From assembly GCA_965205025.1 (NCBI GenBank), contig CBDBFU010000028.1, positions 160,001 to 224,000 on the forward strand: DNA of 64,000 bases, in the 5' to 3' direction. Below are positions 25,748-55,389 of this stretch, in pieces. The notes under the pieces are model-generated. The model saw only the letters and a program-made list of their open reading frames with translations, had not been told where the DNA came from and did not search any database. This DNA is from Candidatus Poribacteria bacterium. Lineage in GTDB: Bacteria > Poribacteria > WGA-4E > WGA-3G. The position numbers and the translations under genes are program-made. Each line of letters begins with the position of its first letter. The first letter of the stretch is position 1.

Positions 25748-25902
25748 CAGGACTTACGCATTTCATCTTAAAGTCCCCCTGACAAGGGGCGGGGAATGCC
25801 CTAAGGCATTCATACCGTTGATTCTTTAGGGGGTTAAAACACTGAAATGACGGCTTTTTAAGTCAAATTTCACCTTTTTCTGCTTATATTGCGTAAGTCC
25901 TG
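25748..25902. mobile_element. MITE (13-bp perfect IR) containing a G/C-run hairpin repeat interrupted by a 35-nt micro-element
   Basis: CAGGACTTACGCA / TGCGTAAGTCCTG; flanks TTTAAT/GTTAAT; core AAGTCCCCCTGACAAGGGG[35 nt]TTTAGGGGG. Confidence 0.75.
25790..25824. mobile_element. 35-nt micro-element, copy 1
   Basis: CGGGGAATGCCCTAAGGCATTCATACCGTTGATTC; 33/35 identical to 55294-55328. Confidence 0.75.
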
Positions 25903-25917
25903 GTTAATATTCTTATA

Positions 25918-26760
25918 TTACAATAAATATTTCATTGTTAAGAATAGATAACGACTACAGAATTCTCCCATGAGGACTGTTATGATAGCTATGAAAAGAA
26001 ATCCTGTTGCAGCTCGCGTTGCCCCTACCTCATCGCGTTCAACAGACCTTGGTCGTAGACAATCCCATGTAATGAAATATAGGAGTAGTGTAGCAGCAAA
26101 ACCTAACCCTATTCGCATATAAAAAATCAATTTAATATGGAAACTAAAAGGTACCGTATTTGCTGCATGTGATCTAAAAAACAGACCCAGACAAAACAGG
26201 ACTATAGATACAATCAGCACGACTAATAGAGTTGTATTATATCTTCTTAATAAATGTACAGGTAATTCGGGTGTTACAAGATACCAATGTCCAAACCACA
26301 TACCAGTATGAACTATACCAATAAGTGCAGCGGAAATAAGGAATTGGAACGGTAAGATAAAATGTATTACCGGTAATTGCACCTGATTAATGTATGTTAA
26401 GGCACTGATAATAATCAAACCACACCCACAAAATGACCCACCACCAAATAACAGCATTCTGATAATTGGATACTTGAACCACCAGCTGATAGTATAGGCA
26501 AAAAGTAATAGGAAAAATACGATTATCAGAATAGCTTCTGTATCTTCCCAGTAGAAGAAGAAATTTGAGATACTTACAGACTGCTGATGTAGGTATAGAT
26601 TAGCACACCTTGCTAACCCCACAACAAGAAGATATATTCCACCCATAAGACGATAAAAGTTTGCACCAACTACACCTTTGGGTATAAGGATAAGTACGAC
26701 AAACCCACCAACAGACAGTTGTGTGAATACAAGGTAGAAGATTTCGCTAATACTAAACAT
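25918..26760 (-). CDS. Polytopic membrane protein of unknown function (possibly DmsC/NrfD-like)
   Basis: About 8 TM segments; FTQLSVG N-terminus and GMWFGHWYL motif. Confidence 0.6.
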   Translation of the reverse strand: MFSISEIFYLVFTQLSVGGFVVLILIPKGVVGANFYRLMGGIYLLVVGLARCANLYLHQQSVSISNFFFYWEDTEAILIIVFFLLLFAYTISWWFKYPIIRMLLFGGGSFCGCGLIIISALTYINQVQLPVIHFILPFQFLISAALIGIVHTGMWFGHWYLVTPELPVHLLRRYNTTLLVVLIVSIVLFCLGLFFRSHAANTVPFSFHIKLIFYMRIGLGFAATLLLYFITWDCLRPRSVERDEVGATRAATGFLFIAIITVLMGEFCSRYLFLTMKYLL

Positions 26761-26765
26761 AGTTT

Positions 26766-26802
26766 AAAAGAAACCCCATTATAGTAAAACCATAATGGGG
26801 TT
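26766..26802 (-). terminator. Intrinsic terminator after rplL
   Basis: AACCCCATTAT / ATAATGGGGTT stem with a T-rich tail on the minus strand. Confidence 0.75.
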
Positions 26803-26854
26803 CAGATACTTAACTATAGAAGGTTACCTTCATATATGAAGGTCTGATTTTATA

Positions 26855-27253
26855 CTATATGATTTCGACTTCAGCACCGACAGCTTCAAGTTGCTCTTTA
26901 GTTTTCTCTGCGTCTTCTCTGCTTAAACCTTCTTGAATAACAACAGGAGCAGATTCAACTTTCTCTTTTGCTTCCTTCAAACCAAGTCCTGTGATAGAGC
27001 GTACCTCTTTGATAAGAGGAATCTTCTGACCACCGATCTCTTTGATTTGTACATCAAATTCGGTTTTTTCAGCAGCTTCTTCACCCTCACCATCTGCTGC
27101 TGCCCCTGGCGCAGCAGCGACACCTGCTACTGCCATTGCAGGCATGGCTGAAGCACTAACTCCAAACTTTTCTTCAAGAGCTTTAACTAATTCAGACAGT
27201 TCTAAGACCGTCATTTCACTAATCTCATCAATGATTTTTTCTAAATCTGCCAT
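26855..27253 (-). CDS. rplL: 50S ribosomal protein L7/L12
   Basis: [38 protein letters not shown]. Confidence 0.97.
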
Positions 27254-27284
27254 TTTTCAATCCTTTCTAAGAAAATTACAAAGC

Positions 27285-27845
27285 CTATTCAGCGGCTTTC
27301 TTTTGTTCGGCGACCTGTGTTAGGACAGATGTCACCTGACCGATTGTATTATTTAGTACATTCACAAACCCTTGTATCGGTGATCCATTGTTAAGCACAT
27401 TTACAAGTCCATATAGAGGAGCACCTATTCCACCAATTGTTTTAGCAATAAGTTCATCTTTTGATGGCATATCTTGTAGTGCTTTAACACCATCAGCATC
27501 AATGACTGTTGATCCAAGAATGCCACCTTTAATTTTTAAATTTTCATGCTCTTCAATGAAATCGTATAGTAATTTACTCGATGCAGCAGGATCATCACAC
27601 CCTGCAAGAGCAGTGTTACCTTTTAAGTATGGCGCAATACCTTCAAGTTCTCTTTCTTGCGCAACGACATTAATTAACGTATTCTTACAAACCTTATACT
27701 GGATATTAGCATCACGAAGTCGTTGGCGTAAATCGTTAACCTCCGCAACAGTTAGTCCTTGAAAATCTGTAAGAAGAATGACATCCGAACTTTCAAAAAG
27801 CTCGCGAATTTGTCCAACCTGCTGAACATTAGCTTCATTCGGCAT
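27285..27845 (-). CDS. rplJ: 50S ribosomal protein L10
   Basis: DFQGLTVAEVNDLR, VCKNTL, KIKGG; position between rplA and rplL. Confidence 0.95.
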   Translation of the reverse strand: MPNEANVQQVGQIRELFESSDVILLTDFQGLTVAEVNDLRQRLRDANIQYKVCKNTLINVVAQERELEGIAPYLKGNTALAGCDDPAASSKLLYDFIEEHENLKIKGGILGSTVIDADGVKALQDMPSKDELIAKTIGGIGAPLYGLVNVLNNGSPIQGFVNVLNNTIGQVTSVLTQVAEQKKAAE

Positions 27846-27884
27846 AGGTTAGCTCCTTTCCCAATTTGGCTATTTCATCCGAAA

Positions 27885-28016
27885 TAGAAAAACCCCCATT
27901 GGACTGGAGGCTTGACTCAACTACGGAAAGTAAAATGTTCTACTACCTAAGTAGTATTCAATGAACTCAATCCGAGTCTCGGTAGGTAATTAAGCCAAAG
28001 CCCCTACTTTCTACAA
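27885..28016 (-). promoter_or_regulatory. L10 leader (autoregulatory RNA) with attenuator-like hairpin
   Basis: Minus strand GTAGAAAGTAGG...TTAA..CCTACCGAG resembles the L10-leader core; then AAGCCTCCA-GTCCAA-TGGGGGTTTTT. Confidence 0.7.
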
Positions 28017-28069
28017 CTCTATTCTGGTATGATAAATATAGTTTAAACCTTAATTATGTACCGTATGTA

Positions 28070-28182
28070 TGAAGATTAAGAAAATATTTCGGTAATTCTA
28101 ATTTTACCAAACCTGGTAGGTGCGGTTTCCTAACCGCACTGGATCTTTCTTTAAAATTACCGAATTTAAAAATTAATCTACA
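28070..28182. mobile_element. TG...CA-ended MITE shell with REP-A core, inserted in a hairpin loop
   Basis: TGAAGATTAA / TTAATCTACA, inner IR TCGGTAATT / AATTACCGA, core GTAGGTGCGGTTTCCTAACCGCAC (28116-28139); homologous to 55233-55378. Confidence 0.75.
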
Positions 28183-28280
28183 TATATACGGCACATCTCC
28201 AATTTTTTTGGATTATTTGATTAATATCTGCATGTATGTGTTCTGGTATAGATAATAAGTTAATTTGGACAATTAAGTGT

Positions 28281-28979
28281 TTATGTAAATTGCTGTGGAT
28301 CTATACGAATACCAACACCCATTGTTGATGAAATTGCTACACTTCTAATATACCGACCTTTAGTTGAGGATGGACGTGCCTTCACAAGAACATCCATAAC
28401 TGTCGTCAGATTATCCTTAATTTGGCTTTCTTCAAAGGATGTCTTGCCAATAGGAACATGTACGATCCCTGATAAACGTTCAACACGATATTCAATTTGT
28501 CCTGCCTTAATATTTTGAAGTGTTTCTGTAATATCCATTGTAACCGTTCCGGCTTTTGGGTTCGGCATAAGTCCTCTTGGACCCAGAACTCTTCCTAATT
28601 TTGGCATAATACTACGCATGAGATCAGGGGTAGCAATTGTAGCATCAAATTCAAGCCACCCATCAGTGATCTTATCAACAAGTTCATCTGATCCAACAAA
28701 ATCTGCACCTGCTTCTTCAGCTTCTTTAGCTTTATCACCTTCAGCAAAAACAACAACTCGAACAGATTTTCCTGTACCGTGTGGTAATGCAACTGTTCCA
28801 CGTATATTTTGGTCAGCGTCCCTTGCATCTAAACCAAGTCTGGATGCCAAATCAATGGTTTCATCAAATTTCGCTGTACTTGTTTTTTTCAAGAGTGATA
28901 CAGCCTCGTCAACTGTATATAAACTAAGTCGATCAACATTCTCCTGAATATCGTTATATCGTTTTCCTCTTTTCGCCAT
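28281..28979 (-). CDS. rplA: 50S ribosomal protein L1
   Basis: [36 protein letters not shown]. Confidence 0.97.
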
Positions 28980-28986
28980 TTTACAC

Positions 28987-29032
28987 TCCAAGTTCATTTA
29001 ACCTATTCATCCAAGTTCATTTAACCTATTCA
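28987..29032. repeat. Exact 23-bp tandem duplication upstream of rplA
   Basis: TCCAAGTTCATTTAACCTATTCA x2. Confidence 0.9.
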
Positions 29033-29089
29033 AATGAATAAAACCTATAATGTATTCATAGTCTATTATTTGATAGATTAACCAGTTAT

Positions 29090-29512
29090 TTAGTTTATAT
29101 TCAATCCCATGCTTCGTGCGGTACCTTCAACCATTCGGACAGCTGCTTCAATGTCATTTGTATTGAGATCAGGTAATTTCGTTTGAGCAATCTCTCGGAT
29201 CTGATCACTGGAAACCGTTGCGACTTTATTTCGGTTTGGTTCTCCCGAACCTTTAGCAATTTTTGCTGCCGATTTAAGCAATACTGCAGCAGGGGGCGAT
29301 TTCACTATAAAGGTAAAAGATCTATCGCTATAACATGTAATGATCGTGGTAACAACCATTCCAGTTTGCTGCTGTGTTTGTGCATTGAAGGTCTTAATAA
29401 ACTCCTGCAGGTTGATTGCATAAGGTGCTAAACTCGGACCGACGGGAGGCTGTGGTGTTGCCTGACCAGAAACCAATTGAAGTTTGACTACACCTGCTAC
29501 TTTTTTTGCCAT
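29090..29512 (-). CDS. rplK: 50S ribosomal protein L11
   Basis: [30 protein letters not shown]. Confidence 0.97.
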
Positions 29513-29543
29513 TATCTTACTACTCCGTTACTTCTAAATAAAA

Positions 29544-30116
29544 TTAAAGTCTTTCAACCCCTAAGAACCCTAATTCAAGAGGGGTTGAACGTCCAAAAAT
29601 TGAAATAGAAAGGCTGAGTCGCTGCCTTTGCATATCAATTCCGAGTATCTCAGCAGTAAAACTACTGAAAGGCCCTTCAATAACACGTACTTTATCACCG
29701 ACAGAGTAGGTAATCTCAGGCATAGGTGCTTCTTCTTGTACGGTGGAACTATGTAGCATGCGTTCTATATCTTCTGCCCCTAAGGGTGTTGGATTGGCAT
29801 TCCCTAAAAAATTCATTACCCCCGGCGTTTCTTGGATAAACGCCCAACTCCTTTGACCGATTCCATTATCAACGTGAGGACCAATTTCATGTAAACAGTT
29901 TACAAGAACATATCCAGGATAAGTTGGTGATGTCCTTTCCTTACGTTTTCCGTCCTCATTCTTCACAGTGGTAGACATAGGTACGTTAATCTGGAGAATC
30001 TCCTCGCGAAGTTCTTTATCGGAATCAGAATCCGATGCAAGTCGTCTTTCTAAATTAAACTGTATTTTCTTTTCATGTCCAGTATATACCTGAACAATAT
30101 ACCAGAATCCGCTCAT
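29544..30116 (-). CDS. nusG: Transcription termination/antitermination factor NusG
   Basis: WYIVQVYTGHEKK, YPGYVLV, TPGV..FLG, KOW VGDKVRVIEGPF, IFGRSTP. Confidence 0.95.
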   Translation of the reverse strand: MSGFWYIVQVYTGHEKKIQFNLERRLASDSDSDKELREEILQINVPMSTTVKNEDGKRKERTSPTYPGYVLVNCLHEIGPHVDNGIGQRSWAFIQETPGVMNFLGNANPTPLGAEDIERMLHSSTVQEEAPMPEITYSVGDKVRVIEGPFSSFTAEILGIDMQRQRLSLSISIFGRSTPLELGFLGVERL

Positions 30117-30226
30117 AGATTACTCTCGCTGTGATATGACAAGCTTAAGTCGTTTTATAGAATTTCGTACTCCGAATCAGTAGTAATATTAATGGGATTG
30201 TTAGAAAATCTATACTTTTTAACCTT

Positions 30227-30342
30227 TTATAAGGAATAAATTCCTTAAGAAAGACATTCCCCATCCTGACATAGGTTCATTTAGTTATAAGGAATAAATT
30301 CCTTAAGAAAGACATTCCCCATCCTGACATAGGTTCATTTAG
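30227..30342. repeat. Exact 58-bp tandem duplication spanning the secE 3' end
   Basis: TTATAAGGAATAAATTCCTTAAGAAAGACATTCCCCATCCTGACATAGGTTCATTTAG at 30227 and 30285. Confidence 0.95.
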
Positions 30343-30657
30343 GTTAAGTGCATAGGTCGTAATGAGTACAACTACTAATGGAATACAAGCAACAACAGTA
30401 TAGTGTATACGGCGGTTCTCCAATCCTTTACCAAAGAAAAATACAGCAACAGGAATTATAACCAAGATAATATTAGCAGGCCATTCCCATTTTGGCTGAG
30501 CGGAACTACCATCCACTAACCAAAGAAAAAGTCCCAGTAAACCACTGGCAATTAAAACAACTACCGTACTACCGCGCACCTGTTCCCAATCAGGTTTAGA
30601 CACCTTCTGCCATTCTAATATAATATTCTGTATGTAAGCTTTGAAACGTGCAATCAT
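30277..30657 (-). CDS. secE: Preprotein translocase subunit SecE (extended)
   Basis: Lies between tRNA-Trp and nusG; EWQKVSKP...TVVVLI...FLWLVD. Confidence 0.85.
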   Translation of the reverse strand: MIARFKAYIQNIILEWQKVSKPDWEQVRGSTVVVLIASGLLGLFLWLVDGSSAQPKWEWPANIILVIIPVAVFFFGKGLENRRIHYTVVACIPLVVVLITTYALNLNEPMSGWGMSFLRNLFLITK

Positions 30658-30670
30658 AAGTATTTAAAGG

Positions 30671-30744
30671 CAGGCCAGGAGGGATTCGAACCCCCAACAT
30701 CCGGTTTTGGAGACCGGCGCTCTACCAGTTCGAGCTACTGGCCT
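30671..30744 (-). tRNA. tRNA-Trp (CCA)
   Basis: Cloverleaf; anticodon arm CCGGT-CTCCAAA-ACCGG; GTTCGAATC T-loop. Confidence 0.95.
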
Positions 30745-30756
30745 ACAGATTATATT

Positions 30757-30909
30757 CTACCGATTCTCCTTATGGAGTGTATGTTTACGACAGAAACGAC
30801 AATATTTCTTACGTTCATACCGATCCTGTTGTGTCCGTCTATTACGTGTGGTTACGTAATTTCTTTGTTTACATTCATCACATGCTAAGGTAACAATATC
30901 TCTGGGCAT
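30757..30909 (-). CDS. rpmG: 50S ribosomal protein L33 (Zn-ribbon type)
   Basis: [17 protein letters not shown]...[15 protein letters not shown]. Confidence 0.95.
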
Positions 30910-30930
30910 TTTTCGTACCTCGTATTTTAC

Positions 30931-31006
<76 letters not shown>

Positions 31007-31024
31007 AATTAATTATGCTTCACA

Positions 31025-31097
31025 AGCGGGAGACGGGATTCGAACCCGCGACGCATGGCTTGGAAGGCCAATGCTCTACCAGCTGAGCTACTCCCGC
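31025..31097 (-). tRNA. tRNA-Gly (TCC)
   Basis: GCGGGAG acceptor; anticodon loop CTTCCAA. Confidence 0.95.
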
Positions 31098-31108
31098 ACA
31101 ATCTGAGA

Positions 31109-31190
31109 TGGGGGCGGACGGATTCGAACCGCCGTAGGCGTAGCCAACAGATTTACAGTCTGCCCTTTTTGACCGCTCAAGCACACCCCC
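31109..31190 (-). tRNA. tRNA-Tyr (GTA)
   Basis: GCAGA-CTGTAAA-TCTGT; long variable arm. Confidence 0.95.
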
Positions 31191-31196
31191 AATATA

Positions 31197-31268
31197 AGCT
31201 GACGAGAGGAATCGAACCTCCAACCTAGTGATTACAAATCACTTGCTCTACCATTGAGCCACGTCAGC
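31197..31268 (-). tRNA. tRNA-Thr (TGT)
   Basis: AGTGA-TTTGTAA-TCACT anticodon arm. Confidence 0.95.
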
Positions 31269-31402
31269 ATTCTACTGTTCTTGTCTTATTATGTCAGAAA
31301 AACTAAACACCTCAAAATAAACTGTATCGGGAATCATTGGTTAAATAAACGCAGATTAACTTGTGCCTTACAGATATACATAAGGCAAAAATATACCCTT
31401 AA

Positions 31403-31431
31403 AGTATACTTAATCTTTAAGGGTATGTCAA
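31403..31431 (-). promoter_or_regulatory. Sigma70 promoter of the tRNA/secE/rpl cluster
   Basis: TTGACA-17-TATACT, overlapped by IR ATACCCTTAAAG / CTTTAAGGGTAT. Confidence 0.7.
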
Positions 31432-31449
31432 GTAAATCTATGTCTATGT

Positions 31450-31827
31450 TTACCCTTCGTCCTCAATATCCGTTCCACTCTCTTCGTCAGTTTCTGATTT
31501 ACTTTCCTCTTCATCACTGACTTCTTGTGCATTTTCTCCATATAGTTCTTCAAAATGTTCTTCAGCATCAACAGCATCAAATCCAGAAGACTCTGATGCA
31601 AAGATGGAGGGAGTGTCGGATTCTATTGGCTCAGGATCAACTTTCTTGTATAACAACTCACCAGCTGCTAACTCTTCTGTGGCGATTGAAACAGGCATCT
31701 TTTTCTTTGATAAACCTGCTCCTAAAAGTTCATCATTTAGTGCACGAGCCCTTTTGGCAATAATATTAACAGCAAGATATTTATTACTAACCTGCTCATC
31801 TAATTCTTCAAGATAAACAATTGGCAT
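31450..31827 (-). CDS. rpoZ: RNA polymerase omega subunit with an acidic C-terminal extension
   Basis: NKYLAVNIIAKRARAL, K.PVSIA.EEL..G. Confidence 0.88.
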   Translation of the reverse strand: MPIVYLEELDEQVSNKYLAVNIIAKRARALNDELLGAGLSKKKMPVSIATEELAAGELLYKKVDPEPIESDTPSIFASESSGFDAVDAEEHFEELYGENAQEVSDEEESKSETDEESGTDIEDEG

Positions 31828-31880
31828 TGATCCTCTCCTTTATGCAAAGACTCCATTGTGTAAAGACTCGTTATACTCTA

Positions 31881-31946
31881 ATTATATTCTTTATCTACAT
31901 TGAAGTCAAATTTATTTTGACTTCTTAAGGGTTAAGATGGTAAAAT
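31881..31946. promoter_or_regulatory. Back-to-back sigma70 promoters for rpoZ and mqnC
   Basis: Minus: TTGACT-17-TATAAT (31909-31881); plus: TTGACT-18-TAAAAT with TGn extension (31917-31946). Confidence 0.7.
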
Positions 31947-31986
31947 TCTATATTATTAAATGACACTCAGGTATAAGGAATGACGA

Positions 31987-33054
31987 ATGGATAAGACTGT
32001 CGAACACATTTTAAATAAAGCCCTTGAGGGTGTGCGTTTGAATTTTGATGACGCACTTACACTTTTTAAGTCTTATGACCTACTCCCGTTAGGACATGCA
32101 GCAGATGTTATTCGGCAGCGGAAACATTCTGAAGGGTTTATTACCTATATTGTAGATCGAAATATTAACTACACTAACTGGTGTTATGTGGATTGTGATT
32201 TTTGTGCATTCTACCGGCACAGAAAAGATCCTGACGCCTATGTCATGGAACGTGAAGAACTTGGACAAAAAATACAAGAAACTATAGATTTGGGTGGTGA
32301 ACTCATCCTAATGCAGGGTGGATTGCACCCTAAACTCAAATTGGAATGGTATGAAGATTTACTGAGATGGATTAAGTCTAATTATAAAATTCATGTCCAC
32401 GGTTTCTCTCCACCTGAACTGGATTGGTTTGCAAAGATCAACCGTATGTCACTAAGAGACGTTCTTTCCAGACTTCGTGATGCAGGATTGGATTCAATCC
32501 CTGGTGGAGGTGCTGAGATCTTAACCGATCATGCCAGAAATATTATTAGTCCAAAGAAGTGCACTGCAGATGAATGGCTTGAAGTCATGAGACAAGGTCA
32601 TCTTGTCGGACTCAAATCAAGTGCTACAATGATGTATGGACACGTTGAAAGTTACGCTGAACGGGTTGAACATCTCATGAGACTACGCGATCTTCAAGAC
32701 GAAACAGGTGGGTTTACCGCATTTATATGTTGGTCATTCCAACCCAACAATACTGAACTCTCACATATTCCCCCAGCAGGAAGTTTTGAGTATCTCAAGA
32801 CATTGGCGATTTCACGCTTAGTTCTTGATAATATAGACAACTTCCAATCCTCATGGGTTACACAAGGTCCTAAAATAGGACAACTCTCATTAAAATTCGG
32901 GGCTAACGATATGGGTGGGACAATGATTGAAGAGAATGTCGTTAGTAAAGCGGGTACAGTCTATTGTATGCCGATAGAAGAGATTGAACGCACAATATCT
33001 GAATTGGGTTTTATACCGAAACGCAGAAACTTCTTCTACGACATTCTAAATTAA
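31987..33054 (+). CDS. mqnC: Cyclic dehypoxanthine futalosine synthase (radical SAM, futalosine menaquinone pathway)
   Basis: TYIVDRNINYTN.CYVDCDFCAFYR, LMQGG, SIPGGGAEIL, QSSWVTQG, GANDMGGTMIEENVV. Confidence 0.9.
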   Translation: MDKTVEHILNKALEGVRLNFDDALTLFKSYDLLPLGHAADVIRQRKHSEGFITYIVDRNINYTNWCYVDCDFCAFYRHRKDPDAYVMEREELGQKIQETIDLGGELILMQGGLHPKLKLEWYEDLLRWIKSNYKIHVHGFSPPELDWFAKINRMSLRDVLSRLRDAGLDSIPGGGAEILTDHARNIISPKKCTADEWLEVMRQGHLVGLKSSATMMYGHVESYAERVEHLMRLRDLQDETGGFTAFICWSFQPNNTELSHIPPAGSFEYLKTLAISRLVLDNIDNFQSSWVTQGPKIGQLSLKFGANDMGGTMIEENVVSKAGTVYCMPIEEIERTISELGFIPKRRNFFYDILN

Positions 33055-33205: not shown

Positions 33206-33209
33206 TAAA

Positions 33210-46986: not shown

Positions 46987-47015
46987 TTGACTTTTTTATC
47001 TCTACGAGTTACAAT
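46987..47015 (+). promoter_or_regulatory. Sigma70 promoter of argC-lpxB-lpxK
   Basis: TTGACT-17-TACAAT. Confidence 0.65.
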
Positions 47016-47047
47016 ATACAATATAGACTATTTACGAAGGTAATTGC

Positions 47048-48091
47048 ATGACAAAAATCGGAATCGTCGGTGCATCCGGCTATAGTGGCAGTGAATTATT
47101 AAGATTTTTAGTTAACCATTCTGGTCAACTGAAGGTAGAACTTGTCACATCAGAAACCTACGCTGGACAACGGGTCGAATCCGTACTACCACACCTTCGA
47201 GATTTCATTGATCTTGATTTTGAACCATTAGAGATCGGATCACTAAAAAACCGTGTTGATGTTGTTGTTTTAGCTGTACCTCATAAGGTTGCAATGACAT
47301 ACACACCACAAATCCTCGCGCAAGACTTGCGAGTCGTAGATTTTAGTGCTGACTACCGTCTTAAAAATGTACAAATCTATAGCGATTGGTACCATACTGA
47401 ACATACAAGTCCTGATCTATTCCAAAATGCTGTATACGGTTTACCCGAACGTTACCGTGAGAAAATTCGAGATGCGAAACTCGTTGCCAATCCTGGATGT
47501 TATCCTACCAGTGCTATACTCGCCACATTACCCTTACTTAACAATAGACTCATAGATTTAGATTCTATTATTGTTGATGCCAAATCTGGAATATCTGGAG
47601 CAGGTCCTAAACCCAAAGATACAACCCATTACCCAAATAGAGAATCTAATCTTGTAGCATACAATATTGGTAAACACCGTCATACACCTGAGATAGAACA
47701 GGAATTAGGTGCAATTGCTGGGGATTCAATTTCAATAACCTTCACTCCACATTTAGTTCCCATGACTCGTGGCATTCTCAGTACAGTTTACGCTCGATTG
47801 GAACAACCACTTGACACTGAAACAGTACTTGATGTCTATAAAAACTTCTATCAGAGTGAACCATTTATACGAGTTCTCGACATTGACGAATACCCCCAAA
47901 CAAAATCTGTCCTGGGTAGCAACTATTGTGATGTTGGAATTGAAGTAGACAAACGAACACAACGCATTGTTGCTATGGCTGCTATAGATAATCTTGGTAA
48001 AGGGGCAGCGGGTGCAGCAGTTCAGAATCTAAACCTTATGTTTGACTGTGATGAAACTGACGGTCTAAAATCACCTGGACTGATGCCTTAG
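47048..48091 (+). CDS. argC: N-acetyl-gamma-glutamyl-phosphate reductase
   Basis: GASGYSG.EL, D.SADYR, ANPGCYPT, DAKSG.SGAG, IDNL.KGAAG. Confidence 0.95.
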   Translation: MTKIGIVGASGYSGSELLRFLVNHSGQLKVELVTSETYAGQRVESVLPHLRDFIDLDFEPLEIGSLKNRVDVVVLAVPHKVAMTYTPQILAQDLRVVDFSADYRLKNVQIYSDWYHTEHTSPDLFQNAVYGLPERYREKIRDAKLVANPGCYPTSAILATLPLLNNRLIDLDSIIVDAKSGISGAGPKPKDTTHYPNRESNLVAYNIGKHRHTPEIEQELGAIAGDSISITFTPHLVPMTRGILSTVYARLEQPLDTETVLDVYKNFYQSEPFIRVLDIDEYPQTKSVLGSNYCDVGIEVDKRTQRIVAMAAIDNLGKGAAGAAVQNLNLMFDCDETDGLKSPGLMP

Positions 48092-48136
48092 TTCCCTTAC
48101 TTGACATTCGGAGTTTGCCATTACAAACCTATCCTA

Positions 48137-49285
48137 ATGGAACTTATGATTGTCGCTGGTGAACCCTCCGGTGACCTACACGCCTCACACGTCGTAACTG
48201 CACTCAAGAAACTACACCCCGATATCACAGTATACGGTATGGGTGGAGATATGATGGAAGAATCAGGTGTGTCACTGGATATACACATCCAAGATTCTGC
48301 TGTGATGGGAATCTTAGAAGCTATCACTGTTCTCCCTAAATTCCTCAAAAAACTCTCACTGCTAAAGAAAAGACTCCGAGATAAACATCCTGATCTGTTG
48401 CTACTTGTTGACTTTGCGGAGTTTAATACCCCATTAGCAAAATATGCTCAGAAGTTAGGTATTAATGTAGTTTACTATATACCTCCAAAAGCATGGGCAT
48501 GGCGTCCTGGTAGAGCGAAAAAAATCGCTGAACGCACAAATGTTGTTGCCGCAATTTTCCCTTTTGAATCAGAATTCTATGAGAAGGCTGGCGCATCTGT
48601 AAAATTCGTAGGACACCCTTTAGTAGACTTTGCCTACACTGATCTCACATCGGAACTGGCACGTGAGAAATTAGGAATTCAAAATGATTCCCATGTAATC
48701 GGTTTAATGCCCGGAAGTAGACGATCAGAAGTGCAACGCATTCTACCAATTATGCTCCAAGCAGCTGTAAATATCCAAAAAACATATCCTGATACTGAAT
48801 GGATACTCCCCAAAGCACCAAGTATATCAGATGAACAGATAGAATCTTGTAAAATCGGAATTGATGATGTGCCTACTATTAAACTGATACACGATGATAC
48901 ATACACAGCAATGCGAGCTGCAACATTGATGTTCGTCACCTCTGGAACAGCAACACTTGAAACTGCTTGTATTGGCACACCGATGATAATACTCTATCGC
49001 ACTTCACCCTTAAATTGGAAGATCGTAAACTGGTTAACACATTTAGAACACAGTGGTTTACCTAACCTAATAGCAGGTAAACGTATTGTACCAGAATTGC
49101 TACAAGAAAATTTATCCACACAAAGTCTAACAGATCTCACAATTAACCTGTTTCAGAATCCCAATCAACTTGAGATACAAAAAATAGCTCTAAATCATGT
49201 CTATAACCAATTAGGGGAGTCCGGTGTAGCAGATAATACGGCACAAATAATATTGGACCAAGCTGCATTGGCAACTAAGTCCTAA
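48137..49285 (+). CDS. lpxB: Lipid-A-disaccharide synthase
   Basis: VAGEPSGDLH, YYIPP.AWAWR, FVGHPL, LMPGSR..E, SGTATLE. Confidence 0.93.
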   Translation: MELMIVAGEPSGDLHASHVVTALKKLHPDITVYGMGGDMMEESGVSLDIHIQDSAVMGILEAITVLPKFLKKLSLLKKRLRDKHPDLLLLVDFAEFNTPLAKYAQKLGINVVYYIPPKAWAWRPGRAKKIAERTNVVAAIFPFESEFYEKAGASVKFVGHPLVDFAYTDLTSELAREKLGIQNDSHVIGLMPGSRRSEVQRILPIMLQAAVNIQKTYPDTEWILPKAPSISDEQIESCKIGIDDVPTIKLIHDDTYTAMRAATLMFVTSGTATLETACIGTPMIILYRTSPLNWKIVNWLTHLEHSGLPNLIAGKRIVPELLQENLSTQSLTDLTINLFQNPNQLEIQKIALNHVYNQLGESGVADNTAQIILDQAALATKS

Positions 49286-49287
49286 CA

Positions 49288-50400
49288 ATGAAACACATCC
49301 TCTATTCATTCATTACTACTAAACAACCTGGTTTCTTCACCTCTCTCTTTCGGATACTACTAACACCGTTAACATGGTTCTACGGAACAATAGTTTGTAT
49401 ACGTAACTTCTGTTACGATTCCAATATACTTAAACAGACAAAATTACCATGTCCTGTAATTAGTTTTGGAAATATAGTTGTTGGAGGAACAGGTAAAACA
49501 CCAGCTGTTGAATCAACAGCAAAACTACTACAAGAAGCAGGATATAAGGTCGCTATTCTACTACGCGGTTATGGAAGAAAAAGTTCAGAAAAGATTTTGA
49601 TCGTCTCGGATGGGCATAGATGTCTATGCACAAGATTAGAAAGTGGGGATGAGGCATACCTACTTGCACACAAACTTAATGGAATACCGATTATCGTCGG
49701 TAAAAATCGAGTTGATACCGGAAAAATTGCCTGTGACCAATTTGATTGTGATATTATCCTATTGGATGATGGATACCAGCATCGTAAATTGGTACGGGAT
49801 ATTGATATTCTAACAATTGATTCTACACAACTCTTTGGTACAGAATCACTACTACCAATAGGAACACTCAGAGAACCATTAGCATCGTTAAAACGTGCAA
49901 ATATCATTCTACTCACTCGAGTAGATATATCTAACACACAGATTGCCAACTTGAAGAATAAGATTAATCAACGGATTCAAAATACTCCTATTTTAGAGAG
50001 TATACACCATCCATCATCATTGTATGAGTTAGGAAATCATTATATTCCGATTGATAAATCCAAAACAATTCCAATGAAGAATTTAGAAGGCAAACGGATT
50101 TTAGCAGTGTGTGGAATCGGAAACCCAGAGGCATTTAAAAAAACACTACTATATTTCAATCCAGAATTTATTGAGTTATTACCATTTCCAGACCATCATA
50201 TCTATACTGATTCAGATATAGAAAAAATAATACAACAGTCTAAACAAGTCAATGCTGAATGGGTCATTACTACACAGAAAGATGAAGATAAACTATCATC
50301 ACTATCACAACATATACGAGTTCTCGTATTATCAATTGAACTTATTATAACTGATGGAAAAGAAGTATTACTCAAAGAATTGCAGACTAAAATAAACTGA
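49288..50400 (+). CDS. lpxK: Tetraacyldisaccharide 4'-kinase
   Basis: GNI.VGGTGKTP, RGYG, GDE, LDDGYQH, LLP.G.LREP, FPDHH, TTQKD. Confidence 0.93.
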   Translation: MKHILYSFITTKQPGFFTSLFRILLTPLTWFYGTIVCIRNFCYDSNILKQTKLPCPVISFGNIVVGGTGKTPAVESTAKLLQEAGYKVAILLRGYGRKSSEKILIVSDGHRCLCTRLESGDEAYLLAHKLNGIPIIVGKNRVDTGKIACDQFDCDIILLDDGYQHRKLVRDIDILTIDSTQLFGTESLLPIGTLREPLASLKRANIILLTRVDISNTQIANLKNKINQRIQNTPILESIHHPSSLYELGNHYIPIDKSKTIPMKNLEGKRILAVCGIGNPEAFKKTLLYFNPEFIELLPFPDHHIYTDSDIEKIIQQSKQVNAEWVITTQKDEDKLSSLSQHIRVLVLSIELIITDGKEVLLKELQTKIN

Positions 50401-50402
50401 AT

Positions 50403-51305
50403 TTAGGGTAATGGTTCACCCTCTTGTGAAGTCATTTCAGCATAAAGATCTTGTAATCGTCCGGTCATCTCTCCTGGACTCCCCGTTCCAATCTGCCTAC
50501 CATCCACCTCTAATACAGGGCTTAATTCACCAACTGTTCCTGTAGTAAACATCTCATCTGCGGTATACACCTCTGTTAAAGAGACATTCCGCTCTATCAT
50601 CGGAATCTGCGCGGATTTAGCGAGTTGGATAACATTACCTCGTGTAATCCCAGGTAAACAACTGTCTGCATGGGGTGTAATTACTTCACCTCGCTTGATT
50701 ATAAAGATATTTGTCGCATTAGTCTCAGAAACAAAACCAAAAATATCAAGCATAATCGCATCGTCTACCCCAGCGACATTCGCCTCTATTTTAGCCAGTA
50801 TGTTGTTTATCAAATTGTTGTGGTGGATTTTAGAATCTACACATTGTGCAGTATTTCGACGAATTGTAGAAGTTATCAAACGTATACCGGTACTTGCGTA
50901 AATAGGTGGTTTCCATTCTGCTAAAACAATTAAGCATGTACCATACTGATTTACCTGCGGATTCATACTTGAGGTAACTTTTTTACCTCTACTAAGGGTT
51001 AGACGTATATGGACTTCATCACGCATTCCATTAGCTTCTAATGTCTCAAAAATAGCCTTTTTAATGTCATCCCGGGATGGAATTCCTTCAAACGCCATTG
51101 CATGTGCAGAATCAATTAATCTATCAAGATGTGGATCCAAGGCAAATATCTTTCCTTTATAGATACGAAGTCCTTCCCATACCCCATCCCCACCTTGGAC
51201 AAGACTATCAAAAACCGATATTTTCGCTTCTTCACGGGGAAATAATTCCCCACCAACATGAATTAATATGTTCTCATTTCGAGAATCAGGTAATTGTGGT
51301 TTCAT
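50403..51305 (-). CDS. Aminotransferase class IV (branched-chain aminotransferase-like)
   Basis: KISVFD...GDGVWEGLR, SETNATNIF, LPGITR, ADEMFTTGT. Confidence 0.88.
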   Translation of the reverse strand: MKPQLPDSRNENILIHVGGELFPREEAKISVFDSLVQGGDGVWEGLRIYKGKIFALDPHLDRLIDSAHAMAFEGIPSRDDIKKAIFETLEANGMRDEVHIRLTLSRGKKVTSSMNPQVNQYGTCLIVLAEWKPPIYASTGIRLITSTIRRNTAQCVDSKIHHNNLINNILAKIEANVAGVDDAIMLDIFGFVSETNATNIFIIKRGEVITPHADSCLPGITRGNVIQLAKSAQIPMIERNVSLTEVYTADEMFTTGTVGELSPVLEVDGRQIGTGSPGEMTGRLQDLYAEMTSQEGEPLP

Positions 51306-51454
51306 TTACTCTCCTAATTTATTTCTGTTTCAATCATAGTATAGTATCTGAAAGGTTAATTGAATAAAATTTTCAGTTCCTTCCGATTAACTGGACAATT
51401 TATATGCATCTATAAAAGATGAGGCATAAACTTCTTAAAACATACGAATGATTC

Positions 51455-53386
51455 TCATATCCAACTATATACTGCGGAACGTAATACCAAACTCAATAAA
51501 GGCCAAAAACAACCCATCAACGCTTCACCTAATACCAATCCAATGAAGAATGGGATAGCCTTTCGGTATGCATTAATCCCACCGTTCCGCAAAATAATCC
51601 ACTTCGTAACCATTGCAATTAAGAGTGGAAACCAAATAACATCTGTTGTACCTGGTGCCACTCCAATCACATATCCTGCAGGATGGAGTGGACACCATAC
51701 AAAGCGAGACCGTAGAAACATTATTCCCAAATTCGCAAAAAAGGTTATACCGAGAACACTACTGGCTAACCAATCCATCGGCTTTGGATTTACTAACCAT
51801 GATGATAGGAAATTATATGTATCTGCACCCCCCGCATGTATTTGCTCAGAACCCGCAGCAACACCCTCACTATAAATCGTATACGGATACAGTATTAGAC
51901 TTGATAAGATTCCGACAAGACTGGCTATTACCAGAACTGTAAACATCGTCCGGTTACGGATACTTGTTCTTTCTGCCAGTTTAAACGCCTCAAGTTGATC
52001 AGGCATTGGATGTGTACGGAATGAAGCATAACTCGCACCACTCAACCAATTCATCAGAGAGAGCATCGTCAAATTCCCCGCACGTAAACGTCTGGTTCCA
52101 AGAAGTGAAATCATCATATATTGAGGTGTTAAATACCCAATAGCGTGTATTGGAGGACCCAGTTCCGCACGCATACGTGTTAAACCGACTACAATCAGCA
52201 AATATATCACAATAAATACGACAAATGCCCACAACGACATCCCTCCTCGAATACAAAATATAGCCAGCAATAAGAGTGATAGAGCTAAGATGATTAATGT
52301 TGTGCGATGGGATAATGCTTCATTCTTAGCTTCTAATGACTTTGGTCGAATTGCTTGGGATAATACCAATGCAAAATGCTTCCTACCATTCCAACAGGCA
52401 ATTGCAAGTAACGCAAGTAATGCACCTGCTCCTTGTTCACCTAAAAAGGGGTATCCCTGTACTTTAGATACACCTGAAGCACTACCAAAAAGCAATTGGA
52501 TCTTCTTCATCATATAGAAGAACGTACAGGAAAATGCCAAATCAAGTGGAAGAATAAACGAGAATCCTATCAGATAAGGATGAACACGAAGCGGAGTACT
52601 ACCCATTGCATTCCACGGTTTTTGCGTAAAATACATGTTAAGATTGTATTTTCTGACAGGAATTTCTGGCAATATAGGATAGAAATACTGCAACCCATTT
52701 AGTAGATTAATACCAGCAGCGATACCAAAACCTATCCATAATAACTTACTTCTAAATACACCACGGTTTGTGGTTATCTCCAGTGGGATCTGTATAATTG
52801 GATATGCAAGTTTCTCATTCTCTATCCACTGCTTTCTGATTAACGATGTCAAACATAGAAAAATGAGCATCAATAAGAAAATCACCGCAGACCAGGACAG
52901 AATAGGAACTATCCAATAATTTAAATATCCTCCAGTAAAGAAGTTAACATTACCTTCGTAAAAATCATTGACTGTTTTTGGGTCTTTTACGACAAGCCAT
53001 TCAGGCAGGTGATGGAATAACAATGCTTCCCAATCATTCTCTGGCGTAGCAAAACGATACGCATAAGGGATCAATCCCATTAATCGAGGCATGCAGTCAT
53101 GACCTGAAAATGCACTCCCAACTGCAAGCATACTATACACAACAATAAGATCACGCTGCGAAAGTGAGATCTGCGGGGCAATGCTACGTAACCAAAGATT
53201 AATTACTGTAATCACAAAAATCCCAAACATCACATTCACAGACATTGCTACCGTCGTCAGATGGGCTGTGTGCCATATCATCTCAACATAAGCTATCCAG
53301 TAACTATTAGCGACAATTAGGAGTGTACCAATCAATACTGCCCTTTTCGCAATAGGACGTGTTGATTGTAAGTTTGTATGGTTCAT
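51455..53386 (-). CDS. Large polytopic membrane protein, putative (oligo)peptide transporter-like
   Basis: About 15 TM segments; RKQWIENEKLAYP, TRMRAELG, WCPLHPAGY, PFFIGLVLGE. Confidence 0.7.
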   Translation of the reverse strand: MNHTNLQSTRPIAKRAVLIGTLLIVANSYWIAYVEMIWHTAHLTTVAMSVNVMFGIFVITVINLWLRSIAPQISLSQRDLIVVYSMLAVGSAFSGHDCMPRLMGLIPYAYRFATPENDWEALLFHHLPEWLVVKDPKTVNDFYEGNVNFFTGGYLNYWIVPILSWSAVIFLLMLIFLCLTSLIRKQWIENEKLAYPIIQIPLEITTNRGVFRSKLLWIGFGIAAGINLLNGLQYFYPILPEIPVRKYNLNMYFTQKPWNAMGSTPLRVHPYLIGFSFILPLDLAFSCTFFYMMKKIQLLFGSASGVSKVQGYPFLGEQGAGALLALLAIACWNGRKHFALVLSQAIRPKSLEAKNEALSHRTTLIILALSLLLLAIFCIRGGMSLWAFVVFIVIYLLIVVGLTRMRAELGPPIHAIGYLTPQYMMISLLGTRRLRAGNLTMLSLMNWLSGASYASFRTHPMPDQLEAFKLAERTSIRNRTMFTVLVIASLVGILSSLILYPYTIYSEGVAAGSEQIHAGGADTYNFLSSWLVNPKPMDWLASSVLGITFFANLGIMFLRSRFVWCPLHPAGYVIGVAPGTTDVIWFPLLIAMVTKWIILRNGGINAYRKAIPFFIGLVLGEALMGCFWPLLSLVLRSAVYSWI

Positions 53387-53531
53387 TGAAGTTGGAAGGT
53401 AAAGGCCTAAATTCTGAAAATGTACTACTGAAATTACTGAAGGTATTACGAATTATTTGGAAAGATTCTCATAGGTATGGTATACTATAAATTAGAAGTA
53501 TGTCAAGATGAAAATAGAAGAATATCCAGTA

Positions 53532-53596
53532 TATTCTCATGGGTTAAAACCTTAGATCACAGATCCAATTGTGCTACGGTTTTAACCTTTAGAATA
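53532..53596. repeat. Long imperfect hairpin with a degenerate REP-B-like core
   Basis: TATTCT..GGTTAAAACC / GGTTTTAACC..AGAATA; minus-strand core GTAGCACAATTGGATCTGTG. Confidence 0.5.
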
Positions 53597-53930
53597 AGTA
53601 CAGACTATAGACCATCCTTGACAATTTTTAACATTTGTTAAAATCACAACTTACAAGATTTTATGATTGAAGGTGTATCTATAACAGAGTTTGAAATACA
53701 CTTACTCTTGTTTTCTCAATTTCTGCTATTCTAATGTATAATTCCTAATAGAATTTATATCAATAGGAACACATCAAACAATTAAACACACATTAGACTT
53801 AGGAACTTATGGATAAAACTCTATTATTTTAGCTTACACATTTTGAACTAATTTCTAAAACATACCAACCTATGGATATTGTGTAAGTTTTATTTCTTAT
53901 CAATGACACCAGTATATAGGAGCTATTAAT

Positions 53931-55034
53931 ATGGAACTATCATTTGAAAAAGATGAACTTTTATATTCACTACAAGTTGTACAAGGTGTAGCAAGTGAAC
54001 GCAATACTTTGCCAATTCTACAAAATGTTCTCATCCGGGCAGAAAACGGTAAAATCGAGTTTTCCGCTACCGACTTGGAAGTTGGTATAAGAGTTGTTGT
54101 GTTAGGCACAATCAAGGAAGAAGGATCAATCACTGTTTCAGCAAAAAAATTCACTGATTTAGTGAGAGAATTACCAAGTAAACCAATTGAATTGGCTACC
54201 ACAGCAAACGATCGTGTCGAATTAACATGTGGAGAAGGAGTCTATAAAATGATTGGGCTTTCAGATGAAGACTTCCCTGAAATACCATCTGTTGATGGAG
54301 AATCAATAATTATAGACGGAAATATCTTGAATTCTGTAATTCACAAAACCGAATTTGCTGCATCCAGAGATGAGGTCCGTTACCTACTCAACAGCCTTTA
54401 TTTTAATATTCTTGAGGATAAAACTGAAATTGTCGCAACTGATGGAACAAAACAACTCGCACTGACACATTGTGATCCGCTAAATACTCCTGATGAATCA
54501 AGCGGCTTTATCGTACCATTAAAGGCTGTCAGAGAGATTGAAAGGACATTTGCTGAATCTGGTGAAGTTAAGATCGCATTGGCAAAAAATCAACTTCTAC
54601 TGGCAAATGACAATACCACACTCACAACCCGTTTGGTTGAGGGTGAATATGCCAATTACCAAGGTGTAATTCCTGAATCATCAGAAGGACGTGCTGTTGT
54701 TACAAAAGAACTATTATTGCGAGCAACAAGACGAGTGGCATTACTTTCAAACCCTAAGAACTATTTAATCTGTTTAGAGATTGATCCAGAACGCATAACT
54801 ATTTCAGCAAACTCTCCAGAACTCGGTGAAGCACGCGAAACTGTCGAAGTAGAATCAAGTACTGGAAGTGTACGGATCGGTGTTGATGCACGGGTTCTCA
54901 CTGAAGTCATAGCACACATCGAAACTGATTCTCTTATCATAGAGTTTTCCGGGGAATTTACACAATTTGCTGTGAAACCGCAGAGCGATGACACCCACAC
55001 ATGTATCATCATGCCAATGCGGTTAGAATCATAG
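53931..55034 (+). CDS. dnaN: DNA polymerase III beta sliding clamp
   Basis: TLPILQNVL, ATDLE, VATDG, TRLVEG.Y, IMPMR; RBS AGGAG. Confidence 0.95.
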   Translation: MELSFEKDELLYSLQVVQGVASERNTLPILQNVLIRAENGKIEFSATDLEVGIRVVVLGTIKEEGSITVSAKKFTDLVRELPSKPIELATTANDRVELTCGEGVYKMIGLSDEDFPEIPSVDGESIIIDGNILNSVIHKTEFAASRDEVRYLLNSLYFNILEDKTEIVATDGTKQLALTHCDPLNTPDESSGFIVPLKAVREIERTFAESGEVKIALAKNQLLLANDNTTLTTRLVEGEYANYQGVIPESSEGRAVVTKELLLRATRRVALLSNPKNYLICLEIDPERITISANSPELGEARETVEVESSTGSVRIGVDARVLTEVIAHIETDSLIIEFSGEFTQFAVKPQSDDTHTCIIMPMRLES

Positions 55035-55055
55035 GTTTTGAAATAAAGGATAATT

Positions 55056-55102
55056 AAATCAACCCTATGGACTACTTACAAAGCAGACCATAGGGTTGAT
55101 TT
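55056..55102 (+). terminator. Probable terminator after dnaN
   Basis: AAATCAACCCTATGG / CCATAGGGTTGATTT stem. Confidence 0.7.
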
Positions 55103-55217
55103 CGTTTGGATTAAATCCCATAGGAACGTAATGGCTATGTATAGTTGTTTAGAATACCCGTATTCTCTGTGTAAACAGTGTAATTCGTGATATAATCACT
55201 AAAGAATTTCGATCTTT

Positions 55218-55389
55218 GTACCGCAAACTTTATGAGGATTAAGTAAATATTTCGGTAATTCTATTTTTCCCAAACCCGGTAGGTGCGGTTTCCCGGGGAA
55301 TGCCTTATGGCATTCATACCGTTGATTCACCGCACTGGATATTTCTCCTGAATTACCGATTTAAAAAATTAATCTTCATTTAGTTTGCG
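55218..55389. mobile_element. Four-layer nested element: REP-B > TG...CA MITE (55233-55378, TSD TTTA) > REP-A > 35-nt micro-element
   Basis: GTACCGCAAAC-TTTA-[TGAGGATTAA..TCGGTAATT..GTAGGTGCGGTTTCC-(35 nt)-ACCGCAC..AATTACCGA..TTAATCTTCA]-TTTA-GTTTGCG. Confidence 0.8.
55294..55328. mobile_element. 35-nt micro-element, copy 2
   Basis: CGGGGAATGCCTTATGGCATTCATACCGTTGATTC in place of the TA seen in intact REP-A copies. Confidence 0.75.

Follow-up and report, generated by a model that had tools for sequence, protein, structure and literature searches.

A 35-nucleotide hairpin unit nested in other hairpin repeats of sponge-associated Poribacteria

Introduction

How the smallest repeats of bacteria multiply, i. 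e. the repetitive extragenic palindromes (REPs) and the small dispersed repeats (SDRs), is unsettled. In Nostoc punctiforme, the repeats SDR4-6, with a length of 21-27 nt, were reportedly described by Elhai et al. in 2008 (Genome Res 18:1484) as nested and precisely inserted in repeats and palindromes, with no transposase identified. Derivatives of the insertion sequences (IS) of the IS200/IS605 type require two hairpins, one at the left and one at the right end, they integrate on the 3' side of a fixed target of four or five nucleotides with no target bases being lost, and they show a strong lagging-strand bias. For E. coli and Pseudomonas, REPs, REPINs and the REP-associated tyrosine transposases (RAYTs) are treated in three papers that are used here in excerpt (PMC3116915, PMC3733652, PMC3479197); in the excerpt of PMC3733652, a GTAG (or CGTC) tag is part of the definition of a REP. 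In this work, we have analysed a stretch of 64,000 nucleotides, the window, from a Candidatus Poribacteria bacterium (assembly GCA_965205025.1, contig CBDBFU010000028.1, positions 160,001 to 224,000, forward strand). This window contains two copies of a 35-nt unit, here named X, each located inside another hairpin repeat, and we present the anatomy of X, its hosts, its distribution and the search for the protein that may move it.

Results

As we show here by the comparison of filled and empty host repeats, X has repeatedly entered exposed positions of other hairpins and of X itself, independently of any other element, and has done so many times. The two copies in the window illustrate the arrangement (Table 1). 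The 35-nt pattern matched the window twice, in both cases on the forward strand and with no mismatch, and it matched none of 100 shuffled sequences. The two copies have identical ends, and their sole difference is the 4-nt loop (CTAA in one copy, TTAT in the other). Both copies are intergenic, folding as single-stranded DNA predicts for each of them a hairpin with a stem of 7 bp (about -7 kcal/mol, with z about -2.9), and according to the same folds the stem of the host could still close around the unit at both sites. The two hosts are unrelated to each other and lie in different carriers: the copy at 55294 resides in REP-A, a GTAG-tagged hairpin, and the copy at 25790 in a CCCCC..GGGGG hairpin which we call host B. 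Since the three intact copies of REP-A in the window (GGTTTCC-TA-ACCGCAC) carry a TA at the position of the unit, we can conclude that this dinucleotide was replaced at 55294. For host B, no intact copy was found when it was sought within the window; genome-wide, about 40-45 intact copies are present, and these read AAGGGG-GA-TTTAGGGGG. Thus, the 2-nt loss at 25790 that a previous sequence-only reading of the window had regarded as likely did occur, and the lost bases are GA. The unit begins with CGGGGAAT.. and ends with ..GTTGATTC, so that it has no terminal inverted repeats, and the flanks are not duplicated. In all these respects, i. e. the two copies with their loop-only difference, the unrelated hosts, the replaced TA, the lack of an intact host B copy in the window and the absence of a target duplication and of terminal inverted repeats, the description given by this earlier reading has held.

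The assembly that contains the window, genome G000, comprises 5.66 Mb in 33 contigs with a G+C content of 38.5% and is 95.5% complete. The unit is laid out as a 5' arm CGGG(G), a stem of 7 bp with a free loop, and a 3' arm ATACCGTTGATTY. A search of the genome that was anchored on the 3' half of X returned 301 sites, and 231 of these have the 5' end as well (CGGGGAA with at most one mismatch) and are regarded as full copies. Most of the full copies are 35 nt long (162), 64 have a loop of 5 nt and thus a length of 36 nt, and five have other lengths. Most positions of the arms reach an information content of 1.7-2.0 bits, and the value does not exceed 0.5 bits just beyond positions 1 and 35, indicating that the ends of X are sharp and real. 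Each of the seven positions of the stem is paired in 85-92 of the 94 distinct copies, and at pairs 4, 6 and 7 changes on both sides of the stem were observed (TA/CG in 73/13 copies, CG/AT/TA in 66/9/5 and CG/TA in 61/23, respectively). The sequence of the loop is free, the arms are almost invariant, and the 3' arm is conserved over 13 nt. Two subtypes can be distinguished: X_C has a length of 35 nt and ends with ..GTTGATTC, and X_T ends with ..GTTGATTT, followed by GG in 16 of 27 unique contexts in G000 and in 13 of 34 in other species. X_T is thus probably 37-38 nt long, ending with ..GTTGATTTGG. X is a discrete, non-coding and non-autonomous micro-element with sharp ends. It is not an internal part of a larger IS, and the earlier view that it represents a very small unit of its own, inserted in other repeats that are structured, is supported. 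The 70 sites without a clear 5' end (more than one mismatch) include about two dozen that seem to lack their 5' part. We considered 5' truncation of these copies and rejected it: they are copies of X that were split in the loop by an IS630-type element or its MITE (miniature inverted-repeat transposable element), and the matching left halves exist.

The 231 full copies of G000 represent 113 unique contexts, each defined by 8 nt on either side, and 92 copies in the loci fetched from other species represent 53. With a looser pattern, 101 copies in 70 contexts were collected from the other species; in 13 of these contexts the flanks form a stem of at least 5 bp (mean 2.1 and maximum 7 in 200 permutations). 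The recurrent hosts in G000 are REP-A (in its loop, its 5' arm and its 3' arm), the related hairpins C and C', host B, and X itself (in the tail or in the loop). The junctions were read by comparing the filled hosts with the far commoner intact ones. In seven unrelated contexts a dinucleotide, shown here in square brackets, is replaced by the unit and nothing is duplicated. These are, for X_C, the loop of REP-A (TTTCC[TA]ACCG), host B (AAGGGG[GA]TTTAGG), host C (AAGCCC[CA]GCGGGG) and the tail of X (CATACC[GT]TGATTC), and for X_T, hairpin C' (GAGTCC[CG]TAGGGAC), the 5' arm of REP-A (GGTAGG[TG]CGG) and the loop of a sister hairpin (CATA[CG]CGCATTC). The C' junction can equally be written as a clean insertion of 36 nt that is shifted by one base. 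The swap of a dinucleotide, which is what the proposed tabulation of host repeats, insertion points and lost bases has yielded, is thus a recurrent feature of X. On the 5' side of X, the commonest dinucleotide is CC (57/113 unique contexts in G000, 21/53 in the other species). Within a given host, the orientation of X is nearly fixed: forward and reverse copies number 9 and 0 in C', 21 and 0 in C, 12 and 0 in host B, and 18 and 2 in the loop, 53 and 0 in the 3' arm, and 7 and 0 in the 5' arm of REP-A, amounting to 120 forward versus 2 reverse copies over the six types of sites. At all three REP-A sites, X lies on the strand that bears the GTAG tag. Some contexts are common to many copies, e. 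g. the 3' arm of REP-A (53 copies) and X itself followed by an octamer (44 copies).

Pairwise alignments of filled and empty host copies show the unit as the only difference: the flanks of the nearest empty copy differ from those of the filled copy at 0 of 137 nt for two sites in host C, and at 2-3 of 135 nt for four sites in the loop of REP-A. A composite repeat of about 450 bp, made up of REP-A, C' and two C hairpins, is particularly informative. It is present in at least six near-identical copies (on contigs C5, 46301-46800, and C14, 338426-339059, as well as on C22, C18, C20 and C7), and these copies carry X in different combinations: The copy on C5 has X at none of the sites, the copy on C22 at site a, the one on C18 at site c, the one on C20 at sites a and d, the one on C14 at sites a, c, d and e, and the one on C7 at sites b, c (doubly), d and e. 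As these paralogues differ by X alone at five hairpin sites, X is gained or lost independently of the duplication of its hosts. Moreover, the empty forms are the canonical REPs that flank genes of Y1 HUH enzymes (see below), and insertion is therefore the parsimonious direction. These near-identical paralogues with and without the unit support the earlier proposal that X is a mobile unit.

G000 is the genome of a sponge symbiont from the Poribacteria. A 15-nt core of X was found in all 40 genomes of the genus, with 1-498 copies per genome (250 in G000 and 249 in G014), and another genus of this family has it in 41 of the 44 genomes searched. It was found neither in the five genomes of three further genera of this family nor in the 39 genomes of other families of the phylum, i. 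e. in none of the 44 genomes outside the two genera. The range of X is thus narrow, yet X is universal within the genus searched and present in nearly all genomes of the second. A scan of a species collection matched at least 81 stretches, and among the 80 matches listed, 76 are titled as Candidatus or uncultured Poribacteria and four as "uncultured bacterium"; a cyanobacterial origin, which we had also considered, was rejected on this basis. In genomes G023 and G016, X shows an identity of 94-100% to the query copy, whereas the flanking genes are only about 70-80% identical to those of the window; this excess of identity indicates that the arms are under constraint. The positions of X are not conserved between G000 and the closest species, G004, over 60 kb of synteny. 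The genes of G004 are about 90% identical, and the intergenic spacers are completely different at both sites of the window (25628-25917 and 55035-55486, compared with loci L004 and L012 of G004): At the first site, the carrier of host B is absent and another repeat is found instead, and at the second site, the carrier of REP-A is absent and G004 has a spacer that is shorter by about 250 bp. No copy of X was found in the stretch of G004 that is syntenic with about 59 kb of the window. Contigs from four sequencing runs that cover an 18-kb stretch with eight copies break or pile up at the repeats, and no difference in X alone could be read from them. On a contig of a related strain from run X3 (about 90% identical), a 341-bp composite with two copies of X (L171:6700-7040, corresponding to C14:330700-331040) is replaced by 10 other letters.

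G000 contains three copies of one Y1 gene, all of them on contig C27 (53137-53481 on the reverse strand, 72631-72975 and 86996-87340 on the forward strand; loci L001-L003), and two of these copies are part of a segmental duplication of more than 1 kb. The encoded protein reaches 85 bits with the NCBIfam IS200 model (cut-off 55) and 32.7 bits with the RAYT model (cut-off 80), and its best relatives of solved structure are TnpA proteins of the ISDra2 type (E = 1e-9). These class-1 Y1 genes are flanked on both sides by tandem C' REPs in inverted orientation, in a manner that resembles a REPtron. Relatives of the class-1 genes are present in 22 of the 40 genomes of the genus, and C' or C flanks 17 of the 30 loci that were fetched. 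Just upstream of the start codon of each Y1 gene on C27, we observed a decayed junction that looks like the tail of X_T followed by C'. Y1 genes of a second, RAYT-like class have strong matches in 20 of the 40 genomes. No class-2 RAYT was detected in G000, where the best match (E = 2e-9) is to another family, and G014 likewise lacks such a gene. REP-A-type sequences are present at 14 of 23 class-2 loci of other genomes, in some cases on both sides of the gene. Each class of Y1 genes has a REP of its own (G000 and loci L137-L166 of other genomes): C and C' accompany class 1, and REP-A accompanies the class-2 RAYT. As REP-A exceeds 200 copies in G000, where no class-2 RAYT gene was detected, this REP-A population appears to be orphaned.

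The search for other proteins that might move X gave little. Neither TnpB (PF07282) nor a reverse transcriptase (PF00078) was found in G000. None of the protein families encoded within 600 nt of X is convincingly enriched, the best ones having 8/39, 7/17 and 4/9 members there as compared to 395 of 7081 open reading frames (ORFs) overall; the family with 4/9 turned out to be an IS630-type IS that targets X. We also considered the IS630 transposase as the mover of X and rejected it, the copies of X and the DDE_3 matches showing no correlation over the 40 genomes (rho 0.08). This IS of about 1.25 kb encodes a protein of 395 amino acids (DDE_3 with 80.6 bits, and HTH_32) and has the inverted ends ATGAAGATTAA..TTAATCTTCAT. 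One copy is located on contig C2 (364100-365620; L179:1-1521), and eight further copies are present in G000. In eight of the nine copies, the IS sits at a TA in the loop of an X hairpin, and the ninth occupies the loop of a different small hairpin. The preferred landing site of this IS630-type IS and of its MITEs is thus X.

Even though ORFs make up 84% of the genome, 219 of the 231 full copies are located outside of long ORFs. In spacers between genes that are read in the same direction, X is co-oriented with the genes in 70 cases and anti-oriented in 32, two spacers being mixed (p = 2e-4); a preference for any position within the spacers was not seen. An Rfam search with X returned sub-threshold chance matches and no family, among them CRISPR-DR25 with 19 bits (gathering score 36). 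The copies of X are solitary or directly nested, and do not form the regular arrays with unique spacers that are typical of CRISPR loci. Among 40 adjacent pairs of X in G000, 37 are direct and three are inverted, and no head-to-head junction is present. Apparent inverted doublets in G022 and G013 were rejected, as these are copies of X nested in a sister hairpin.

Such sister hairpins resemble each other in their stems, and their tail is either identical to that of X or a variant of it (GGCGAATGC..GCATTCGCC..TTCATACCGTTGATTT; ..GCATTCGGCGTTGATTT), and they were observed in G022 and G013 (L172-L178) and at position 11524 of contig C4 in G000. Their loops hold X in reverse orientation. The sister hairpins point to a superfamily of such modules. 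Another observation concerns the tail of X, which in G000 is often adjoined by tandem octamers (CTTGATTC)n, e. g. on contig C2 from position 389221 onward, and in other species (L035) by hexamers (TGATTC)n; the sequence TTGATTCCTTGATTC is found 59 times in G000. These runs suggest slippage or repeated nested insertion at the tail of X.

Table 1. Copies of X, their hosts and carriers, and intact REP-A loops in the window.
Feature	Position	Strand	Remark
X, copy 1 (C-ending subtype, loop CTAA)	25790..25824	+	exact match; 7-bp fold
Host B, left half CCCCCTGACAAGGGG	25775..25789	+	outer CCCCC/GGGGG stem pairs around the unit
Host B, right half TTTAGGGGG	25825..25833	+	GA between the halves gone
Carrier repeat of host B	25743..25907	.	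18-nt inverted arms, 25743-25760 and 25890-25907, 94% complementary
X, copy 2 (C-ending subtype, loop TTAT)	55294..55328	+	exact match; fold
REP-A hairpin, left part GGTAGGTGCGGTTTCC, GTAG-tagged	55278..55293	+	
REP-A hairpin, right part ACCGCAC	55329..55335	+	TA of the intact loop gone
MITE-like carrier of REP-A	55215..55396	.	47-nt imperfect inverted arms
Intact REP-A loop (empty site, GGTTTCCTAACCGCAC)	28124..28139	+	
Intact REP-A loop (empty site)	59300..59315	+	
Intact REP-A loop (empty site)	60771..60786	-	

Discussion

X is a real, well-defined and very small hairpin unit of the mobile type, a micro-repeat that resembles REPs and SDRs, and it is among the smallest DNA units known that seem to be mobile. 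In our opinion, X is probably a discrete micro-element that is repeatedly inserted in hairpins, usually in exchange for two nucleotides, by a protein acting in trans. Such a protein would recognise the pair of conserved arms, whatever the sequence of the paired stem between them, cut at the ends of X and join the unit into single-stranded or extruded hairpin DNA. Inside a host repeat, X is also multiplied passively together with its host, and probably by gene conversion between host copies. Several of our observations weigh against this picture. In the 3' arm of REP-A, five nucleotides are replaced by an A plus the unit, which breaks the 2-nt rule. Many copies share their context and have thus been spread by the host, so that the number of independent insertions is far below 231. 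Sites c and d of the composite repeat show all four combinations of presence and absence, which means that X is also inserted recurrently, lost precisely or converted between paralogues; some pairs of filled and empty hosts may reflect conversion or loss rather than fresh insertion. Finally, no filled and empty pair that differs in X alone was obtained for orthologous sites between strains, as the relatives with about 90% identity differ in whole carriers.

With respect to the protein that moves X, the leading candidate, and one that we hold tentatively, is a resident Y1 HUH enzyme of the RAYT or IS200 type, i. e. either the class-2 RAYT, with REP-A as its REP, or the IS200-like enzyme of class 1, with C and C' as its REPs, acting in trans on single-stranded DNA. 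The enzyme-linked 5' end of X would in this case be transferred to a free 3'-OH inside a hairpin. Several features of X fit such a reaction: it has a hairpin with conserved arms that would be single-stranded, no target duplication and no inverted ends, its orientation in the hosts is fixed, and at the three REP-A sites it is co-oriented with the GTAG strand. Moreover, the four nucleotides just 5' of the foot of the hairpin are CGGG, and the CC that most commonly flanks X is complementary to the GG at this position. According to the excerpt of PMC3479197, the nucleotides just 5' of the hairpin foot form a guide in TnpA-REP and IS608, by which the cleavage site is base-paired, and a TnpA-REP monomer is able to cleave at either side of one hairpin and could pass its covalently bound 5' end on to any 3'-OH. 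This guide-like motif, the complementary flank and the ability of TnpA-REP to cut at a single hairpin are the reason why a RAYT-type enzyme is kept as the leading candidate. In addition, the genomes with a strong class-2 RAYT match have a higher median number of X copies (118.5) than those without (39.5; n = 20 each, Mann-Whitney p = 0.05, the genomes being kin and thus not independent), which may simply reflect the presence of more REP-A hosts, and a class-2 RAYT gene of G004 has copies of X upstream of it, at a distance of about 100-250 nt. The genomic associations argue in the other direction. Within flanks of about 1.5 kb around the Y1 genes, X was found at only 4 of 36 loci with class-1 and other genes and at 2 of 23 class-2 loci, one place being common to both sets; since X is near few Y1 loci, and these have REPs of their own, neither class has X as its cognate REP, and X does not form the end of a tnpA locus. 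The suggestion that X might form the end of a tnpA/tnpB or RAYT locus has thus not stood. The copies of X do not correlate with the Y1 matches over the 40 genomes (Spearman rho -0.01): G009 has 21 Y1 matches and five copies of X, whereas G024, G010, G023 and G001 have 44-191 copies and no match to PF01797 (E <= 0.001), and the X-rich genomes G000 and G014 lack a class-2 RAYT. A replichore bias was not seen either: plus and minus copies are interspersed between 0.13 and 3.48 Mb in the one-contig genome G022, a coarse test on the first 100 of 181 sites with the origin unmapped, and in G000 the orientation of X has no link to the local GC skew (116/231). X has neither a GTAG nor a CGTC tag, and to our knowledge the loss of two target nucleotides is not a signature of IS200/IS605 or RAYT reactions, so that the replacement would be left unexplained. 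The single-strand HUH mobilisation that had been proposed for the unit was therefore not confirmed; some indirect features of the sequence would fit this mechanism, though it does not have the support of the genomic association.

It is also conceivable, if unlikely, that X has multiplied without an enzyme of its own: a nascent strand that is stalled in a hairpin could switch its template onto X and back, and amplification of the host together with gene conversion would then account for the copies. This would agree with the choice of hairpins, where forks stall, as targets, with the loss rather than duplication of a few target nucleotides, with the four combinations at sites c and d, a pattern of conversion or recombination among paralogues, with the slippage that is visible in the octamer runs, and with the fact that our searches of G000 and of the Y1 loci found no mobilising gene. 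Template switching should, however, produce ragged ends that are defined by microhomology, whereas the ends of X are sharp over 113 and 53 unique contexts in G000 and in the other species, respectively. Moreover, near-invariant arms around a covarying stem point to recognition by a protein, and the high identity of X between species with much more divergent flanking genes is not expected from such a process. This conservation, the presence of the core in every genome searched of the genus and in most genomes of the second, the location outside of long ORFs and the co-orientation with genes would rather suit a functional motif of the host, such as a protein binding site or an RNA hairpin, for which mobility is incidental. 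We consider it improbable that this is the main role of X: the copy number varies by more than two orders of magnitude within one genus, the positions are not conserved between G000 and G004, the copies accumulate within other repeats and are nested in one another, and neither an Rfam family nor a preferred position within the spacers was found. The large groups of copies with the same context and the correlation of X variants with the host site could be taken to mean that X is immobile and entered each host family just once, as a chimeric accident, with the hosts being amplified afterwards. This is very unlikely and the explanation we favour least, given the many unique contexts in G000 and in the other species, the near-identical paralogues that differ by X alone at five sites and the same 2-nt replacement in seven unrelated contexts. 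Finally, one may speculate, and we regard this as rather doubtful, that X and its sister units represent a distinct class of ultra-small mobile DNA in one family of Poribacteria; a putative structure-specific enzyme outside the known transposase families would swap a hairpin cassette of 35-38 nt for a dinucleotide, and its reading of the arms would keep the cassette near-invariant across two genera. Taking the evidence together, we prefer the insertion of X by a trans-acting protein.

With its filled and empty paralogues, exact junctions, dinucleotide swap, arm-stem-arm layout and range of two genera, the X system makes the question of how the smallest bacterial repeats multiply testable, and it poses this question in a specific form: what is the protein that recognises a hairpin of 35 nt and places it inside further hairpins? 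X is also part of a layered parasitism, in which REPs that are served by Y1 enzymes are invaded by X, and X in turn is invaded by an IS of the IS630 family. Moreover, the comparison with G004 bears on the turnover of intergenic DNA in uncultured sponge symbionts, which is complete at about 90% genome identity.

A search of the literature on repeats and transposases of Poribacteria did not reveal any description of such elements. The statement that the unit has not been described thus stands for the Poribacteria within the literature searched, and it does not stand for very small repeat modules in general, as analogous ones are reported from cyanobacteria. In many respects, X resembles the REPs and REPINs as these are portrayed in the excerpts of the papers cited above: it is an extragenic imperfect palindrome in the range of 20-40 nt with hundreds of copies, it combines a hairpin with a short conserved 5' extension that would be single-stranded, it has no coding capacity and causes no target duplication, and it is restricted to a lineage in which it persists vertically. 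The same genomes contain, alongside X, genuine REPs that bear the GTAG tag and have Y1 genes of their own, and the differences between them are clear. The consensus of X, CGGGG-stem-loop-stem-ATACCGTTGATTY, contains neither of the two tags, X does not flank a cognate RAYT gene whereas C/C' or REP-A do, and inverted doublets of X are absent from G000. In addition, X has a conserved 3' arm of 13 nt, it is inserted in other REPs with a loss of 2 nt, and its abundance does not correlate with the number of Y1 matches. X is thus REP-like in the way it works, but it lacks three defining features of the REP/REPIN-RAYT systems, i. e. the tag, the flanking of a RAYT gene and the doublets.

The palindrome-associated elements derived from IS200/IS605 share with X, as far as the excerpt of PMC3479197 covers them, the asymmetric ends, subterminal hairpins, the lack of a duplication and a short guide at the foot of the hairpin. 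X differs from them in several ways: it has one hairpin in 35 nt instead of two end hairpins, a loose preference for CC together with the loss of two nucleotides instead of a fixed target, and no replichore bias in our coarse test, and TnpB was not found in G000. The IS630-family IS and MITEs of the same genome also use the tips of hairpins and a target dinucleotide, as X does. In contrast to the MITEs of the IS630/Tc1-mariner type, the two ends of X are not inverted repeats of each other, and no TA is duplicated; X is a target of the IS630-type IS and not a derivative of it. With respect to behaviour, the closest precedent may be the SDRs of Nostoc, to which X can be likened by description only: both are very small modules that are nested in other repeats, those of Nostoc in Cyanobacteria, and X, with its 35-38 nt, in Poribacteria.

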